Positions 4,631-37,908 of a stretch of DNA of 64,000 nt are shown piece by piece. A program made the position numbers and the translations under genes. The notes under the pieces are model-generated. The model was not told the DNA's origin. It searched no databases and was given only the letters and a program-made list of their open reading frames with translations. Source of the stretch: Dehalococcoidia bacterium (GTDB lineage: Bacteria; Chloroflexota; Dehalococcoidia; Lucifugimonadales; Australimonadaceae); contig DAOUJA010000042.1 of the NCBI GenBank assembly GCA_034423175.1, positions 16,610 through 80,609 on the forward strand, in the 5' to 3' direction. Position 1 is the stretch's first letter. Every line of letters starts with the position of its first letter.

Positions 4631-5797
4631 ATGGCACGTCAATACACAATGATCTCGGGTGACTCACACCTGGATATCGTCCCAGAGCGATGGACTCACC
4701 GCGTTCCCGAACGATGGCGCGACCGTGCTCCCAGGCTCATCAAGCTACCGAACGGGAACGATGCCTTCATCATAGAGGGACGTCCACCTCACAGTCCTGG
4801 CTTGCAAATCACCGGCACAGGAACCGAGTACGACAAGCACGACATCAGCGGGATCACTTACGTGGGACCGGGCACAGGTACTCCAGAGAAGCGCCTGACG
4901 GAACAGGACCAGGACCACGTTGATGCGGAGGTCCTCTACACGCACCCGTCGTATCTCAATTCGTGGCGCGGGATAAAGGACAACGAACCCTACCTGGCCA
5001 TGATCCGGGCATACAACGGGTGGGTCGCAGAGGAGTACTGCAGCGTGGCTCCTGACCGCCTCATAGGAACGGGGATGATTCCGGATACGGGGATCGACGA
5101 CGCGGTCGCTGAGTTGGAGTACTGCGCCAGTGTCGGCTTCAAGGGCGTCTGCATCTATCGCTTCCCCAATGGCAAGGGCTATCCGACGCCTGAGGATGAC
5201 CGGTTCTGGGCTGCCGCACTGGACCACAACATGCCCATCACGGCACACACGAACGGAGGAACGACGCGGTTCCTCCGCGACGGGCCGGTATTCGAGTACA
5301 GCAATATCACCATCGACGCAGTGCCCGGCAGAGACCCCGTCAACCTGCTTTGCCGCTTCTCGGGTGATATGCCGATGGCGCCGCTCCAGCTTGCCTATGC
5401 CGGCGTATTCGACCGCTTCCCGAACCTCAGGATTTACTGGGCAGAGGCGCAAGCCGGTTGGCTTCCGTTCAGCTTTGCCCAAGTGGACGACAACTACAAC
5501 CGGAACCGGTATTGGGCTGAGCGGCTGTATGGACTGAAGCCGATGCAGCAGAAGCCGAGCGAGTACCTCAAGGAGCGGAACCTCTGGGGTTTCATGAGAG
5601 ACCCATTCGGCGTCAGTATGCGTCATGCCATCGGCGTCGACTCTCTCATCTGGGGAAGCGACTTCGCGCACGCTACCGGCGACTGGCCGGAATCGCTGAA
5701 GACCGTCAACGAGACATTCGTTGGCGTCCCGGAGGACGAACGCTACAAGATGCTTGCTGGCAACGCCGTCGCGTTCTTCCATCTCGACGCCGACTAG
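4631..5797 (+). CDS. amidohydrolase-2 family protein (decarboxylase/hydrolase)
   Basis: ORF 4535-5797 trimmed to the ATG at 4631 after GGAAAGGAGG. MISGDSHLD N-terminus and WGSDFAH near the C-terminus. Collinear with the ORF at 39-1199. Confidence 0.8.
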   Translation: MARQYTMISGDSHLDIVPERWTHRVPERWRDRAPRLIKLPNGNDAFIIEGRPPHSPGLQITGTGTEYDKHDISGITYVGPGTGTPEKRLTEQDQDHVDAEVLYTHPSYLNSWRGIKDNEPYLAMIRAYNGWVAEEYCSVAPDRLIGTGMIPDTGIDDAVAELEYCASVGFKGVCIYRFPNGKGYPTPEDDRFWAAALDHNMPITAHTNGGTTRFLRDGPVFEYSNITIDAVPGRDPVNLLCRFSGDMPMAPLQLAYAGVFDRFPNLRIYWAEAQAGWLPFSFAQVDDNYNRNRYWAERLYGLKPMQQKPSEYLKERNLWGFMRDPFGVSMRHAIGVDSLIWGSDFAHATGDWPESLKTVNETFVGVPEDERYKMLAGNAVAFFHLDAD

Positions 5798-5860
5798 CCG
5801 ACCACCCAACCCGTAACCGATTCAGCACTGGCTTGCGCAATGCCAAGAGGGAGGCCACCG

Positions 5861-7084
5861 ATGATCCGCTTCAGTCAGTCCGAAAAGGCAGGGGCCCCGA
5901 CTTCCGGGCGGCGTCACGTCTGGGCAGCGTTCCTTCTAGTGGTCGTCTTGGCGCTGCTGGTTGGGGCATGCGGAGCTGACCCGACCCCGACTCCTACCGC
6001 TACGGCAGTCCCTACCGCAGAACCGGAACCGGAAGTAAGTGGCGCCGAGGCCGAATGGGAAGCAGTCATTGAGGCAGCACAGGAAGAGGGCAGGCTGGAC
6101 ATATTCGCGTGCTGCAACGTATCTGTCCAGATCGAAGCGATCAACGATGCGTTTGAAGCAAAGTATGGCGTTGAGGTGGTTGCCAGCGGAGGGTCGCCTT
6201 CTCAGAGTGTTACCCGGTTGCTCGCGGAGCGAGAGGCGGGCCAGCGGACACTCGACCTCTGGATCAATGGCCCCGTCTCCGGGAGCAGACTGATACAGGG
6301 CAATGCCCTGGACCCGATTCCTCCCTTGCTGCTGCTCCCCGATGTCACGGACACCTCAGACCTGCTGGAAGGCGAGTGGCTCTACTCCGATCCGGATCGG
6401 AGAGAGTTGCTCATCGCATTCGGAGTGAACGCCCGGACTGCGGACATCGTATACAACACGGACAATTTCGATCCCGCAGATGTCGAGTCGTATTGGGACC
6501 TGTTGGACCCGAAGTACAAGGGCAAGATCCTCATCAACGACCCGCGCCAGGGCCAGGGCGGAACCCCACTCACCTTCATGTACACCAACTCCGAGATCGG
6601 CCCTGACTTCCTGACCCGTTTGTTCACCGAGATGGATGTTGTCGTAACGTCAGACCTCCGGCAGGCCGCCGAGTTCCTCGCGAGGGGCGATTTTGCCGTT
6701 TGTCTGTTCGGCTGCTCCACTGAAGTGACAGCCTTGAAGGAACAGGGGTTGCCGGTGGAGGACATATTCCCAACCGTTCCCTCCGAAGGGACCTGGGGTA
6801 GCGCCAGTCCTTACTTCATAGGAGCGGTTGAAGGAGCTCCGCACCCTGCGGCCCGGCAGTTGTACATCAACTGGTTCCTCTCCAGGGAGGGCCAGGCAGT
6901 CGTGCAGGATCTGGTCCGCATGGACTCAGTGCGCCTCGATATTCCGAAAGACAATGTTCTCCCGAGCAGCCGTCGTATGGAAGGAGTGGACTACTTCCTG
7001 TTCCAGTTCTCGCCCACGTATAACACCGACCTGGCTGAAGCTCAGGAGTTCGTCAAGGAGTTAATCGCGAAACTGGAGGGATAG
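5861..7084 (+). CDS. ABC transporter substrate-binding lipoprotein (family-1 / Fe3+-type extracellular solute-binding protein)
   Basis: Start moved to the ATG at 5861 (GGGAGG 7 nt upstream). Signal peptide ends LLVGAC (lipobox) and is followed by a Pro/Thr-rich linker. The body resembles periplasmic-binding-protein family-1 proteins, and a cognate permease lies downstream. Confidence 0.7.
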   Translation: MIRFSQSEKAGAPTSGRRHVWAAFLLVVVLALLVGACGADPTPTPTATAVPTAEPEPEVSGAEAEWEAVIEAAQEEGRLDIFACCNVSVQIEAINDAFEAKYGVEVVASGGSPSQSVTRLLAEREAGQRTLDLWINGPVSGSRLIQGNALDPIPPLLLLPDVTDTSDLLEGEWLYSDPDRRELLIAFGVNARTADIVYNTDNFDPADVESYWDLLDPKYKGKILINDPRQGQGGTPLTFMYTNSEIGPDFLTRLFTEMDVVVTSDLRQAAEFLARGDFAVCLFGCSTEVTALKEQGLPVEDIFPTVPSEGTWGSASPYFIGAVEGAPHPAARQLYINWFLSREGQAVVQDLVRMDSVRLDIPKDNVLPSSRRMEGVDYFLFQFSPTYNTDLAEAQEFVKELIAKLEG

Positions 7085-34349: not shown

Positions 34350-34428
34350 GTTCACACCCTCCCTGGCGGGCTTTCGGCGCAAGCATACCACTCCGCGCGC
34401 GGCGCGCGCGAGGCTCCTGAGCAGGCAC

Positions 34429-35835
34429 TCATACCCAGATGTCCAGCGACGGCGGTTCCATGAAGGCGAGCGCGAGTGCATCCGCGCGGTCGGGGGAGGC
34501 GATGCCGCGCTTGCGGAGCTTCGCCTTGCTCTCCAACCGGATGCGCCCGGTGGAGGAGACGTCGTAGCGAAGGGCGAGGAGCTGGCCCACGAGAACGGAG
34601 TCGTTGGGGATGGCGGCGGCATCCTCGCGGAGGAGGCGGGCGACCTCCCAGAAGATCTCGGCGCGGAGGTCGGCGAACTGGGAGGGACGCCGGGCCTTGC
34701 CGCCCACGTCCACGCCGATGACGGGGACGCCGAGCTGGGAGAGCCGGTCGACGACGCCGGCGCCGACGCCCGTACCGTCCACGAAGACGGCGGGGACTTC
34801 GAGGGCGTCGGACCAGCCCTTCACCTCGTCGGCGACCTGCATGTTGTCGAGGCCGCGCTTGAGGGGGATGAGGCGCTCGACGCGGTAGCCGCGCCGGATG
34901 CAGATGACGGACTCGTCGGCGCCGAAGCGCGCGACGTCCACGCCCATGCGGTAGGGGAGGCGCTCCGAGCCCTCACCCGCCGCGCTGTCGCGCAGCGACC
35001 TCTCCCCGGGGGAGAGGCTGGAAGGCGACGTTCCTGCCTCCGCAGGAACGACGGCAGTGGCTTCGTGGCGGGCGATGGCGCGGTCGACGTGGTTGCGGGT
35101 GGTGAGGGAGTCCTCGAGGGCGTCGGGGAACTGTCCGAGGACGGACGCGATGTAGAGCGGGGAGTCGTCTCCCCAGTCGCGCCGGTGGTGCTCGACGTCC
35201 GCGGGGGTGACGAGGCCGGGGACGCGGAAGCGCTTGCGTCGGAAGTTGGGGGAGTCGAACGCGGAGATGGTGATCTGGTGGTAGAGGGCGGACTTGGCGT
35301 GGTGGGACTCGTAGAGCTCGCCCTCGTGGGAGAGGGGGTTGCCGATGAGGAGCACCTTGGCGGGGTTGAGGCGCTTGAGGGCCTCCATGTAGGCCTGCTT
35401 GACGCCCTGGGCCTCCGTGACGACGACGAGGAGGTTGGGGGAGTGGAAGCCCTGGATGTTGTGGTGGGAGTTGGAGGAGAAGGCGATGGCGAAGCGGTCG
35501 TCGTCGATGACGTACTTGTTCTCGGTGACCTTGCCGGGGAGCGCGTCGCCGGCGGCGGCGACCGCGAGCCGGAGCTCGTGCCAGAGGATGTCCTTGATCT
35601 GACGGAGCGTGGGGCCGGTGACGACGACCTTGGCGTGGGGACGCGTGTGGAGCCACCAGACGATGGCGCGCGCGGCTGCCCAGTCCTTGCCGGACGAGTT
35701 GCACGCGGCGACGGAGACGCGGGGGTGCTTTGCGAGGGCTTTCAAGATCTCCTCCTGCTTGTCGTAGGGTTTGCCCGCTGCGCCGAGGATGTCCTTGACG
35801 AAGCCGACGGGGTTGTTCCAGTAACGAGCAAACAT
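34429..35835 (-). CDS. phage terminase large-subunit homologue (ATPase + RNaseH-like nuclease domains), solitary
   Basis: 468 aa. Walker A-like AACNSSGKDW, Walker B-like LLVVVTEAQG, nuclease-domain blocks MGVDVARFGADESV and SPDRADALALAF. No other phage genes are in the window, and GC and GC3 look host-like. Confidence 0.75.
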   Translation of the reverse strand: MFARYWNNPVGFVKDILGAAGKPYDKQEEILKALAKHPRVSVAACNSSGKDWAAARAIVWWLHTRPHAKVVVTGPTLRQIKDILWHELRLAVAAAGDALPGKVTENKYVIDDDRFAIAFSSNSHHNIQGFHSPNLLVVVTEAQGVKQAYMEALKRLNPAKVLLIGNPLSHEGELYESHHAKSALYHQITISAFDSPNFRRKRFRVPGLVTPADVEHHRRDWGDDSPLYIASVLGQFPDALEDSLTTRNHVDRAIARHEATAVVPAEAGTSPSSLSPGERSLRDSAAGEGSERLPYRMGVDVARFGADESVICIRRGYRVERLIPLKRGLDNMQVADEVKGWSDALEVPAVFVDGTGVGAGVVDRLSQLGVPVIGVDVGGKARRPSQFADLRAEIFWEVARLLREDAAAIPNDSVLVGQLLALRYDVSSTGRIRLESKAKLRKRGIASPDRADALALAFMEPPSLDIWV

Positions 35836-35867
35836 GGCCTTCCTCGACCCGATACGCCTTCTCGACC

Positions 35868-35902
35868 CCGTTAACGCAAAAAAGCCGCCTGGCCTTGTGC
35901 TG
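35868..35902 (-). terminator. intrinsic (rho-independent) terminator on the minus strand
   Basis: Minus strand reads AGCCGCTTGG-CAGCACAAGG-CCAGGCGGCT followed by TTTTTT. The stem is 10 bp with one G:U pair. It lies 33 nt upstream of the terminase-like start codon. Confidence 0.5.
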
Positions 35903-36097
35903 CCAAGCGGCTCGTCCGCTCTGCCCGGGGTCCGTGGGGGTTGTGGGACCTATGACGTTAGTATGACATATGCGCGTCGTCTACGCAATAGGGCGGGTGG
36001 CGTGTACTCGGCAGGAGCGGGCTGCCCACGGCCTCATGCTATCCTCTACAACCCGAGGATGGGCGGTTGGACAGAGTTTAGAGGAGGAGAGATCGAT

Positions 36098-36787
36098 ATG
36101 AGCACAACCCATCCCCAGCACGGCAGTGGCGGCGCCATCTACACCGACGCGCTGGGCACTACACACGCATGGCCAAGTTCGCGAACTTGTCCAATCTGCA
36201 ATCACCTTGCACAAGTTGAATGGCGAGTGGTTCTGCGTATCGAACACCAGGACGGAGTGGAATGGCGTATTATGACTTGGGAGGCCATTGGGCAGAGCAT
36301 TCTAGGGTTCAACGCAAAAACAGTCTTAGGTCATTGCTTTGCATGCAACCTGCAATCTCTCCATGAGCCCGACGGGGCCTTGCTCTGGCCTAAAGAATCA
36401 AGTCTCCCACTCGCTAACGAAGACATGCCGTCAGATGTCAAAGAGTTCTATGACGATGCTCGTCAGACAGCAGTGAATTCAAAGCGGGGTGCACTAGTAC
36501 TACTTCGATTTTGTATGGAAGCATTGCTCTCGCTCCAAGGATATAGCGACGGCACTTTGTACAATAGAATCGAACAACTATACGTCAGCCAACGCGGAGG
36601 TAAACGGCTAAGGGACGCACTGAGTGCAGTTCGATTAGTGGGCAACTCTGCTGCGCATGACAATGAAATCGTTTGGGACAGGGAAGACCTTTCTCCTCTA
36701 TTCACGCTGGTAAACCTCATCGTAGATGAGTTCTATACCAAAGATGATTCAATTGCCGACATACTCAGCAGTGTAAAGCAGGAGTGA
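36098..36787 (+). CDS. Zn-ribbon + DUF4145 (HEPN-like) domain protein
   Basis: ATG at 36098 follows AGAGGAGGAGA. N-terminal CPICNH...(about 45 aa)...CFACN four-Cys pattern. The C-terminal half has the DUF4145 hallmarks (FYDDARQTAVNSKRGALVLLRFCMEALL...SAVRLVGNSAAHD). About 48% G+C on a sampled line (36481-36540: 29/60). Confidence 0.6.
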   Translation: MSTTHPQHGSGGAIYTDALGTTHAWPSSRTCPICNHLAQVEWRVVLRIEHQDGVEWRIMTWEAIGQSILGFNAKTVLGHCFACNLQSLHEPDGALLWPKESSLPLANEDMPSDVKEFYDDARQTAVNSKRGALVLLRFCMEALLSLQGYSDGTLYNRIEQLYVSQRGGKRLRDALSAVRLVGNSAAHDNEIVWDREDLSPLFTLVNLIVDEFYTKDDSIADILSSVKQE

Positions 36788-36828
36788 AGGCATGCATAGC
36801 GCTACCGTTGGACGAGGGCGCGTTGAGT

Positions 36829-36855
36829 GGGCTGAAGCTCGCTAGCCTTCAGCCC
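36829..36855. terminator. perfect 9-bp hairpin (GGGCTGAAG-N9-CTTCAGCCC) between convergent genes
   Basis: Lies in the 119-bp gap between the DUF4145 gene (+) and the DUF5615 gene (-). No T-tract on either side. Confidence 0.35.
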
Positions 36856-36906
36856 ATCTCATCACACTGCTTGGGCGGCCTCCTCAACGTCGGATTCGGA
36901 GAGTGG

Positions 36907-37269
36907 TCATGGGGCAGTCTCTCTGACACGGATGCGCGAGTCCTCCACGATCCACAATTGACCTTGCAGAGACACCCCGGACAGCACACTGAGCAGCCTC
37001 GCGCCAACCTCCATCAGGTAGTCCCGTTCTTGTTTACTCAGCCGGAAGACCACCAGTCCGGGATAGTGCTGTGGCGGGTACACCCTTATGTCCGCAAAGT
37101 CGAGGTCCAAGGTCACCAGCGCACGATCTTCACTCTGGCAAACGGACGCAATGCGTCGGTCGCTTGCGCCGACCATCCCTTGCTCAGGGACGGTAACCGC
37201 GTCATGGCCTCCCTCAACGAAAAGCCGCGCAAGCTCTCTGGGAAGATTCTCGTCCAGCTTGAAACGCAC
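36907..37269 (-). CDS. DUF5615 family PIN-like toxin (partner of DUF433)
   Basis: GTG at 37269 lies 8 nt downstream of the DUF433 stop. The N-terminus VRFKLDENLPRELARLF matches the typical MKFLLDENL start of DUF5615/Mut7-C-like proteins. Confidence 0.65.
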   Translation of the reverse strand: MRFKLDENLPRELARLFVEGGHDAVTVPEQGMVGASDRRIASVCQSEDRALVTLDLDFADIRVYPPQHYPGLVVFRLSKQERDYLMEVGARLLSVLSGVSLQGQLWIVEDSRIRVRETAP

Positions 37270-37276
37270 GGATGTC

Positions 37277-37591
<315 letters not shown>

Positions 37592-37754
37592 CTACGACAC
37601 CCGCATCCGCGAGCTTACGGCGCAGATACGGGAGAACCAGGCCCGCGTCAGTGAGATCATCGGTGTGCTCGCCGGGATGCAGTCGGACATCGCCCGCCTC
37701 GACGCCGCTTCGTGAGCGCGCATCTCTCGGGGACACGTTGGTGTTGGCGGGGCG

Positions 37755-37818
37755 TCTCCCCGAGAGATTCCTCGGCTTCGCTCGGAATGACAAGGTGGGT
37801 GCGCTCGCGATGGCAGGG
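37755..37818. repeat. intergenic repeat family 1, copy A (CCCCGAGAGAT...CTTCGCTCGGAATGACAAGG...TGCGCTCGCGATGGCAGG)
   Basis: Shares the CCCCGAGAGAT head, a CCGAG/CTCGG hairpin and two GCTCnnnATGrCAAG sub-motifs with copies at 37974-38030 and 38781-38875. Confidence 0.7.
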
Positions 37819-37831
37819 AGGAAGAGAGAAC

Positions 37832-37908
37832 TGGTCGGGGAGCCGGGATTTGAACCCGGGGCCTCTACGTCCCGAACGTAGCGCGCTACCGGACTGCGCT
37901 ACTCCCCG
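37832..37908 (-). tRNA. tRNA-Pro (anticodon CGG)
   Basis: The reverse complement CGGGGAGTAGCGCAGTCCGGTAGCGCGCTACGTTCGGGACGTAGAGGCCCCGGGTTCAAATCCCGGCTCCCCGACCA folds as a cloverleaf with anticodon loop TTCGGGA and an encoded CCA. Confidence 0.9.

Follow-up and report, generated by a model that had tools for sequence, protein, structure and literature searches.

A conserved large-terminase cassette of SAR202-type Dehalococcoidia and its candidate link to a chromosomal capsid operon

A 64,000-nucleotide stretch of DNA from a Dehalococcoidia bacterium (contig DAOUJA010000042.1 of assembly GCA_034423175.1; hereafter referred to as the window) carries a gene for a homologue of the phage terminase large subunit (TerL). 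Here we report that this gene is intact, conserved, under selection and has moved, that its leader is shared with a prohead protease–capsid operon, and that in relatives TerL and the capsid operon lie on the same chromosomes. The gene and its leader very probably form a host-resident cassette, not a prophage scar, which arrived at its present position either together with a small variable block or by entering one. Furthermore, we consider it about an even chance (a probability of roughly 0.5) that TerL is the packaging motor of a dispersed, terminator-gated capsid system resembling a gene transfer agent (GTA) and opened by a common antiterminator.

The TerL protein and its family

A first-pass annotation of the window had described a 468-residue open reading frame (ORF) with both terminase modules, and the ORF list contains this frame as claimed, on the reverse strand (Table 1). 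The PHROG_2 profile ('terminase large subunit') covers residues 8–460 of the product with an E value of 1.8e-40, and no Pfam family, terminase models included, matches it at E ≤ 0.01. A profile of 22 TerL homologues, compared with the PDB, found the TerL nuclease of Pseudomonas phage E217 (E = 1.3e-5) and Sf6 gp2. In a Foldseek search with the AlphaFold2 model of TerL (mean pLDDT 77.7), the 39 best matches were large terminases only, with Sf6 gp2 first (E = 1.5e-19), followed by E217, T4 gp17, HK97, G20c, D6E and P74-26. The ATPase part of the model matches the ATPase domains of P74-26 and T4, and the nuclease part reaches TM-scores to target of 0.69–0.72 with the nuclease domains of E217, Sf6 and G20c. 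These profile and structure matches therefore indicate that TerL has both domains, and it is a full-length terminase homologue, as had been proposed.

TerL has the same fold as Sf6 gp2 (PDB 4idh) and the E217 TerL nuclease (8dkr), an additional-strand, catalytic-glutamate (ASCE) ATPase and an RNase H-like nuclease, at only ~17–20% sequence identity to the solved structures. The shared features include the P-loop lysine, the catalytic glutamate, the nuclease aspartates and a lysine equivalent to Sf6 K428. In the alignment, the TerL P-loop (GK50) falls on GRGSGKSW of Sf6 gp2, K437 on the lysine of Sf6 gp2 for which the PDB has a K428A mutant structure, and D452 on the 'ADAL' aspartate; the nuclease acidic residues align with both Sf6 gp2 and E217. 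The motifs quoted in the first-pass annotation are present and do not vary across the 22 homologues (52–94% identity), in all of which N46, S48, G49, K50, D51, W52, T140 and E141 on the ATPase side, and D300, D353, D363, K437, D449 and D452 on the nuclease side, are invariant.

The ATPase is non-canonical, with an aspartate in Walker A for the usual serine or threonine, and a threonine before the catalytic glutamate of Walker B for the usual aspartate. Among 105 representatives of 50%-identity clusters, those in which both Walker motifs were readable, 56 combine GKD with (T/S)E, 49 combine GK(S/T) with DE and none is mixed; the swapped form is also found in 118 of 118 close homologues. Real viruses carry TerL proteins of the swapped type (at least 80 IMG/VR contigs, 37–42% identity), and in the IMG/VR contig L055 such a TerL lies beside portal, prohead protease and major head genes. 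Because the two positions co-vary perfectly and occur in bona fide viral head modules, the change appears to be a compensated exchange of two Mg2+ ligands, giving a variant active site, and not decay. Mutated catalytic residues, which would have spoken against an intact enzyme, were thus found only as this exchange (GKD51 and T140): the Walker residues are swapped but co-vary, and the catalytic residues are invariant.

The linker between the two domains contains palindromes of the repetitive extragenic palindromic (REP) type, GTTCCTGC..GCAGGAAC and CCTCTCCCC..GGGGAGAGG, and is predicted with a pLDDT below 50; its length differs among orthologues, and the alignment is variable there. Its sequence (GTCGTTCCTGCGGAGGCAGGAAC...) is that of a REP found 3′ of the stop codon in other loci, and by blastn it also matches intergenic copies. 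Orthologues bear different inserts, REPs or miniature inverted-repeat transposable elements, at the same point of the linker, and the ORF is still open. The TerL frame thus seems to have been held open through repeated insertions.

TerL belongs to a large family, with more than 1,700 homologues in a 90%-clustered protein database; an exhaustive search of 50%-identity clusters returned 13,548 clusters at E ≤ 1e-3, of which 2,179 also passed E ≤ 1e-30. The closest homologues (84–93% identity) are on megabase-scale contigs of metagenome-assembled genomes (MAGs) of Chloroflexi and Dehalococcoidia, and several contigs hold both a copy of ~85% identity and one of ~50% identity. One scan of species-representative genomes yielded 19 TerL loci, all in Dehalococcoidia or SAR202. 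Absence from relatives, named beforehand as a finding that would undermine a domesticated gene, was not what we observed: TerL is conserved in at least 12 Dehalococcoidia/SAR202 species. The ratio of nonsynonymous to synonymous substitution rates (dN/dS), suggested as a further check, is 0.19–0.34 for the window TerL against its orthologues, indicating purifying selection. The description of the gene as solitary did not survive, since it is one member of a multi-copy family with at least two paralogues per genome.

The group of ~50%-identity paralogues (P0052, P0057, P0077, P0082, P0090, P0117, P0120; P0053, P0056, P0059, P0068) has a conserved C-terminal extension, GAEPFLRD...GY..PPP...NRLGVW, and in some an N-terminal helix-turn-helix (HTH) domain (PF01381) is fused to TerL.

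The TerL leader and the protease–capsid operon

The 160 bp 5′ of TerL are conserved in 17 loci, ~50%-identity paralogues included. The leader usually opens with TGTGACAC, followed by TTGCG(C/T), 17 nucleotides (nt) and CA(T/C)ACT, a CCCACAACCC stretch, the box G(C/G)GGACGAGCC(G/C)C, a hairpin, GTTAAC and a ribosome-binding site. Across loci the hairpin is GC-rich, 10–12 bp long and followed by a T-run. In the window it spans 35913–35882 with 12 pairs before the T-run and meets the criteria of the terminator scan; its RNA fold has −54.9 kcal/mol (z = −3.1), and compensatory changes from CC/GG to TT/AA occur in the terminator hairpin among orthologues. The columns GG-ACGAGCC of the box are invariant and its 4-bp stem is paired in 14 of 14 leaders, with one compensatory CG/GC pair (7 versus 7); this exchange probably reflects a single evolutionary event, so the covariation lends the stem little weight.

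The first-pass annotation had placed a strong intrinsic terminator 33 nt upstream of the start codon. The hairpin is real, but its T-run ends ~42 nt before the ATG and it ends no upstream gene; it lies inside TerL's own conserved leader, 3′ of the promoter-like box. Given this position within a conserved promoter–leader unit, the hairpin is best read as a putative promoter-proximal gate of TerL itself. A strict sigma-70 scan of the window did not call the promoter-like box, and the leader had no match in Rfam.

An nhmmer profile built exclusively from TerL leaders found one full-length match in the initial loci that does not precede TerL (L017 7574–7705, E = 3.6e-8). It sits just 5′ of a Peptidase_S78 prohead protease gene, a small gene and a Phage_capsid gene, and housekeeping genes flank this module. 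In further relatives, the same profile recognized capsid-operon leaders at L138 (E = 4.6e-10) and L150 (E = 2.6e-11), both with TGTGACAC, CCCAACAACC, GGGGAC(G/A)AGCCCC and the terminator. All three capsid-operon leaders (L017, L138 and L150) contain a leader box of the GCGGACGAGCCGC type. The operon, encoding the protease, an 82-residue protein and the capsid protein, is syntenic in L138 and L150, where it follows proB–proA, UDG and LigT. L138 lies on ctg522378c (2.92 Mb) together with the TerL locus L025, 1.5 Mb apart, and L150 is on the same chromosome as the TerL locus L014. The capsid protein has 1,167 homologues of 56–81% identity, many on megabase-scale contigs; its gene family is as widespread as that of TerL. 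Of the roles offered in the first-pass annotation (defence, DNA uptake or a GTA-like process), the GTA-like one therefore gains evidence, because the TerL leader is homologous to the leader of this operon in relatives.

The nearest viral relatives of TerL, protease and capsid are all on the marine viral contigs L039, L088 and L091, with identities of 41–43%, 31–38% and 44–48%, respectively. The TerL-leader profile did not find the leader in these three viruses, and found nothing in 80 related viral contigs. Throughout 551 kb of related host loci, the phage homologues were TerL, protease and capsid only, and no portal gene was seen.

Further candidates for the leader proved spurious or added no new gene. 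The other GGACGAGCC match in the window (26049) and the additional ones in L018–L020 all fall in coding sequence; a scan of IMG/VR for the GGGGACRAGCCCCGGYC box gave 11 chance matches and no leader. A metagenome scan for the leader pattern gave 27 matches, mostly by chance, including four genuine leaders with enough downstream sequence; as all four precede TerL genes, no new member of the regulon emerged.

Two observations concern the surroundings of the capsid operon. In L017, a 66-residue ORF with a double CxxC zinc ribbon (5749–5946) lies directly 5′ of the TerL gene that adjoins the operon; its product is possibly a small partner, perhaps similar to the terminase small subunit (TerS). A MazE-type toxin–antitoxin pair lies just 3′ of the capsid gene in L150 (11518–12136) and is missing from L138, so the capsid operon also borders a variable spot.

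Genomic sites and the window block

Comparison of the window with 12 TerL loci by blastn revealed homology from 35988–35999 to 34419–34435 irrespective of the flanks, that is, over the gene and ~160 bp upstream only. In nine species the downstream flank is the same (trpS, inositol phosphatase, BrkB and DUF1015 genes, 80–95% nucleotide identity), and the divergence of the TerL copies at this trpS site resembles that of the flanks. The region immediately 5′ of the cassette is a variable mosaic among loci. At other sites the cassette precedes hrcA–dnaJ (L001, L007), an amidohydrolase gene (L003), a DEAD helicase gene (L004) or, in the window and L015, the Rieske gene. A tree of TerL shows the trpS-site copies as a paraphyletic group in which the hrcA-site and Rieske-site copies nest; therefore, the trpS site is ancestral and the position in the window is derived. 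The expectation of single-copy orthologues in conserved synteny held in part: orthologues are conserved, and syntenic at trpS in nine species, but they are not single-copy and the window site differs.

The close relative at L137, from a MAG whose Rieske protein is 95% identical, has an empty site: an NTP-transferase gene, tRNA-Pro (CGG), 46 bp and then the Rieske gene, with homology to the window resuming at 37831 and 34409. The 3.4 kb are therefore an insertion in the window or a deletion in L137. The MAG of L137 has a TerL cassette on another contig (L005). The 3′ end of tRNA-Pro is not directly repeated at the far junction of the block and the block has no integrase, and on the missing repeat we rejected a tRNA-integrating island with att repeats.

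Table 1 Features of the TerL locus in the window
Feature	Positions	Strand	Basis
TerL-like ORF, 468 aa (ATPase and nuclease), stop included	34429–35835	−	ORF list, PHROG_2, Foldseek, dN/dS
N-terminal ASCE ATPase domain, ~aa 1–255	35071–35835	−	Walker A A-C-N-S-S-G-K50-D51-W; Walker B-like V-V-V-T140-E141-A
GKD motif	35683–35694	−	Walker A
TEA motif	35413–35421	−	Walker B-like
Interdomain linker, aa 262–289	34969–35052	−	Two in-frame palindromes of the REP type
C-terminal RNase H-like nuclease domain, aa 290–468	34432–34968	−	D300, D353, K437, D449, D452
Whole cassette (leader and ORF), unit of DNA homology	34429–35996	−	blastn, 12 loci
Promoter-like box: TTGCGT (35988–35983), 17 nt, CATACT (35965–35960), extended −10 TG at −15/−14	35960–35988	−	Sequence; 17 loci
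Conserved leader box GCGGACGAGCCGC, possible 4-bp hairpin, loop ACGAG	35907–35919	−	Alignment
Intrinsic-terminator-like hairpin (12 pairs, 8-nt loop) and T-run in 5′ leader	35876–35913	−	Terminator scan, RNA fold
GTTAAC (35875–35870) and ribosome-binding site GAGGAAGG (35845–35838) before ATG	35838–35875	−	Alignment
3.4-kb block (REP, DUF433/DUF5615 pair, RAZR-like gene, TerL cassette)	34410–37831		Empty site in L137
tRNA-Pro (CGG), block begins at its 3′ end	37832–37908	−	ARAGORN; same tRNA in L137
Low-GC RAZR/PD-T7-4-like (DUF4145) defence gene, divergent from TerL	36098–36787	+	PADLOC, Pfam
DUF433 (37277–37510) and DUF5615 PIN-like (36907–37269), toxin–antitoxin-type pair	36907–37510	−	Pfam
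REP hairpin after tRNA-Pro	37722–37790		Inside block

An insertion sequence with a TerL-like transposase was suggested by the differing flanks of L001–L004 and the identical proteins of L003 and L004. This idea was rejected: the cassette has neither inverted repeats nor target duplications, the homology extends no further than promoter and stop codon, the trpS flank is common to most species, and the HTH_38 insertion sequences next to L003 and L004 are elements distinct from the cassette. These IS30-like HTH_38 elements of 1.07 kb are present in three copies, 95–99% identical (L003 8768–9840, L003 19625–20704 and L004 11435–12508); in one 3.17-Mb genome, two of the copies directly adjoin the two TerL cassettes, from opposite sides.

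Within the window, the PADLOC model PD-T7-4 (RAZR) matches the DUF4145 neighbour of TerL (E = 5.6e-28), and TerL itself matches no PADLOC family at E ≤ 0.001. L013 has a copy of the RAZR-like gene (83% identity) at a distance of 1.2 kb from its TerL cassette. Elsewhere, the neighbours 5′ of the cassette include a type I restriction–modification system (L001) and a protein similar to LmuB of Lamassu (L025; E = 6e-27), so the cassette borders a defence-type hotspot. Copies of the promoter part alone (TGTGACAC...TTGCGC...CATACTGA, without the terminator) occur at L025 8808–8885 and 9180–9237 and, in L011–L016, ~650–800 bp 5′ of TerL; they precede small genes (57–89 aa) in the variable region. Such copies may act as a recombination substrate that shuffles cassettes, and the RAZR–TerL junction of the window can plausibly be derived from an L013-like arrangement by recombination between promoter copies.

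The GC content at third codon positions (GC3) of TerL, 0.932, is close to that of the Rieske (0.941) and NTP-transferase (0.928) genes, compared with 0.50 for the DUF4145 gene and 0.67 for DUF5615, in agreement with the host-like composition noted in the first-pass annotation. The inference drawn there, long residence and no recent prophage scar, is sustained for the gene, which is intact, host-like and selected, but not for its location, where the empty site in L137 and the ancestral trpS site argue against long residence. The 79-bp spacer between the TerL stop codon and the Rieske ATG (34349) is likewise correct. The association with the downstream catabolic operon is not upheld: L137 has tRNA-Pro directly before the Rieske gene, and given the derived position and the empty site in this close relative, the adjacency is incidental.

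In agreement with the first-pass annotation, TerL was the only phage gene detected in the window, by Pfam annotation of 1–12 kb and 24.4–45.8 kb or by tblastn of all 64 kb with 1,493 ORFs of the 80 related viral contigs and with host head genes, in which only TerL matched. We saw neither a portal nor a TerS gene in the window, nor in related loci up to 10 kb from TerL. The low-GC first 10 kb of the window, by a tRNA-Ala, hold catabolic and transport genes, not phage genes.

Interpretation

We propose that SAR202-type Dehalococcoidia inherit the cassette vertically, mostly upstream of trpS, with occasional duplication or relocation, and that in the window lineage it came to lie in the 3.4-kb variable block by tRNA-Pro. 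Transcription would begin at the conserved promoter and normally halt at the leader terminator, yielding an RNA of ~75 nt, until a factor acting in trans, perhaps by binding the GGACGAGCC hairpin, permits RNA polymerase to read through. The same switch would open the operon for the prohead protease, small protein and HK97-type capsid elsewhere on the chromosome. TerL, as ATP-driven motor and nuclease, would then fill those capsids with DNA, in a GTA-like system or a domesticated capsid-forming satellite. We infer its cooperation with that capsid and the production of particles.

Several observations weigh against this proposal. The capsid operon was seen on the chromosomes of relatives (L138 with L025, L150 with L014), and the proposal presumes it in the window's own genome; neither the window nor the 551 kb of related loci yielded a portal, TerS, connector or tail gene. 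Genomes carry two or three divergent TerL paralogues (~50% identity), each conserved, which counts against a GTA because one particle system would not need them. Two of 14 TerL copies are frameshifted (L013, 287 aa; L014, 531 aa with a shifted end), which could be real decay or long-read homopolymer errors. The window leader is devoid of the upstream TGTGACAC element carried by most copies, the promoter, terminator and antitermination are putative, and in several loci the cassette stands beside defence genes.

Some of the same observations invite other explanations. The cassette could be selfish, a promoter–leader–TerL unit that persists by duplication and movement between variable islands, recombining at promoter copies and REPs and serving no role in the cell, with the capsid operon merely having a common type of promoter. 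Its occurrence at five or more sites with sharp homology ends, the insertion absent from a close relative, the two frameshifted copies and the promoter-only copies before small neighbouring genes, which could drive recombination, would all suit such a unit, as would two genomes with two copies each: the 3.17-Mb genome, whose copies differ by a dN of 0 and a dS of 0.017, and another with copies at both the trpS and hrcA sites. We nevertheless regard it as unlikely, since the cassette has no terminal inverted repeats, target duplications or recombinase, nine species keep it at one syntenic site with flank-like divergence, dN/dS is well below 1 with invariant catalytic residues, and the capsid operon shares the full leader, box and terminator included, not the promoter alone. 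Scarcely different in probability, and likewise unlikely, is a defence or decoy role, in which a host terminase, induced by leader read-through on infection, competes with or sabotages phage packaging or cuts concatemers. The variable hotspot just 5′ of the cassette, with RAZR/PD-T7-4 and a toxin–antitoxin pair in the window, LmuB in L025 and type I restriction–modification in L001, is what one might expect of it; several divergent paralogues per genome would suit different phages, and the same type of TerL occurs in the related viruses, which are marine phages. This role leaves the leader common to the protease–capsid operon unexplained, however; no PADLOC model matches TerL, and the trpS-site copy is core-like and host-adapted, unlike its low-GC defence neighbours.

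Recruitment of a phage terminase to another host DNA transaction independent of capsids, such as chromosome processing, DNA uptake or export, or repair, seems improbable to us: it would agree with a conserved, host-adapted protein with both active sites intact and with the lack of a structural partner near most loci, but no conserved partner genes indicate such a pathway, the leader is common to capsid genes, and multi-copy relocation is unlike a housekeeping enzyme. Least probable by far is a decaying prophage remnant, the last gene of a phage that had integrated at tRNA-Pro, still open by chance. The gene does adjoin a tRNA gene within an inserted block that includes low-GC genes, but the remaining evidence largely refutes this origin: its GC3 is the same as in host genes, selection on it is purifying, orthologues in at least 12 species lie mostly at another, syntenic site, the block adds only 3.4 kb without integrase, att repeat or other phage gene, and the non-coding leader is kept even between 50%-identity paralogues. 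We therefore retain the packaging motor of a dispersed capsid system as our working explanation.

GTAs such as RcGTA of Rhodobacter capsulatus consist of phage-derived head and packaging genes that are vertically inherited, host-like in composition, under selection, spread over several loci and under common control. The system proposed here resembles RcGTA, as read from its genes, in the vertical inheritance, host composition, selection and dispersed loci of its head and packaging genes, but only TerL, the prohead protease, the small protein and the capsid gene are seen, with no portal, TerS or tail found; furthermore, there are several divergent, relocating single-gene TerL cassettes, and control apparently acts through a promoter-proximal terminator. 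In the late control of phage lambda, the PR′ promoter is followed by the tR′ terminator, and the Q protein is the antiterminator. At the sequence level, the TerL leader is similar, with a promoter and then an intrinsic terminator within ~75 nt, before packaging and head genes, and with the unit repeated before separate late units; the differences are that these units are scattered on a bacterial chromosome and that a conserved RNA box (GGACGAGCC) lies at the foot of the terminator. Capsid-forming phage-inducible chromosomal islands (cf-PICIs) are chromosomal elements with their own capsid, protease and terminase that depend on other functions, and they are compact islands with integrase, replication and regulatory genes, whereas the genes described here are scattered, keep their synteny across species and, in the loci examined, come with no integrase or replication module. 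In contrast to TerL of the P22/Sf6 type, the window TerL is encoded by itself on a bacterial chromosome, has a promoter and leader terminator of its own but no adjacent TerS or portal gene, and shows the Walker A aspartate, the Walker B threonine and in-frame REPs in its linker.

More tentatively, at rather less than even odds, these features may belong to an undescribed, virus-derived particle system of SAR202, in which scattered TerL cassettes and the protease–capsid operon share one private switch (a promoter followed by a terminator with the GGACGAGCC RNA box), antitermination opens all units, paralogues differ in packaging specificity and promoter repeats shuffle cassettes with defence genes. 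Full-text literature searches, in an incomplete collection, turned up neither such a system in SAR202, Dehalococcoidia or Chloroflexota nor the Walker A/B ligand swap. To our knowledge, SAR202 bacteria are uncultured and among the most abundant bacteria of the dark ocean and of sponges, and we know of no gene-exchange mechanism in them. The leader provides a concrete, searchable marker for the whole regulon, and the Mg2+-ligand swap, present in thousands of terminases, offers a natural test case for metal coordination in ASCE motors. If the proposal is true, a host-owned packaging motor and capsid under one switch would represent a candidate vehicle for horizontal gene transfer in SAR202 and a new, independently evolved example of virus domestication.

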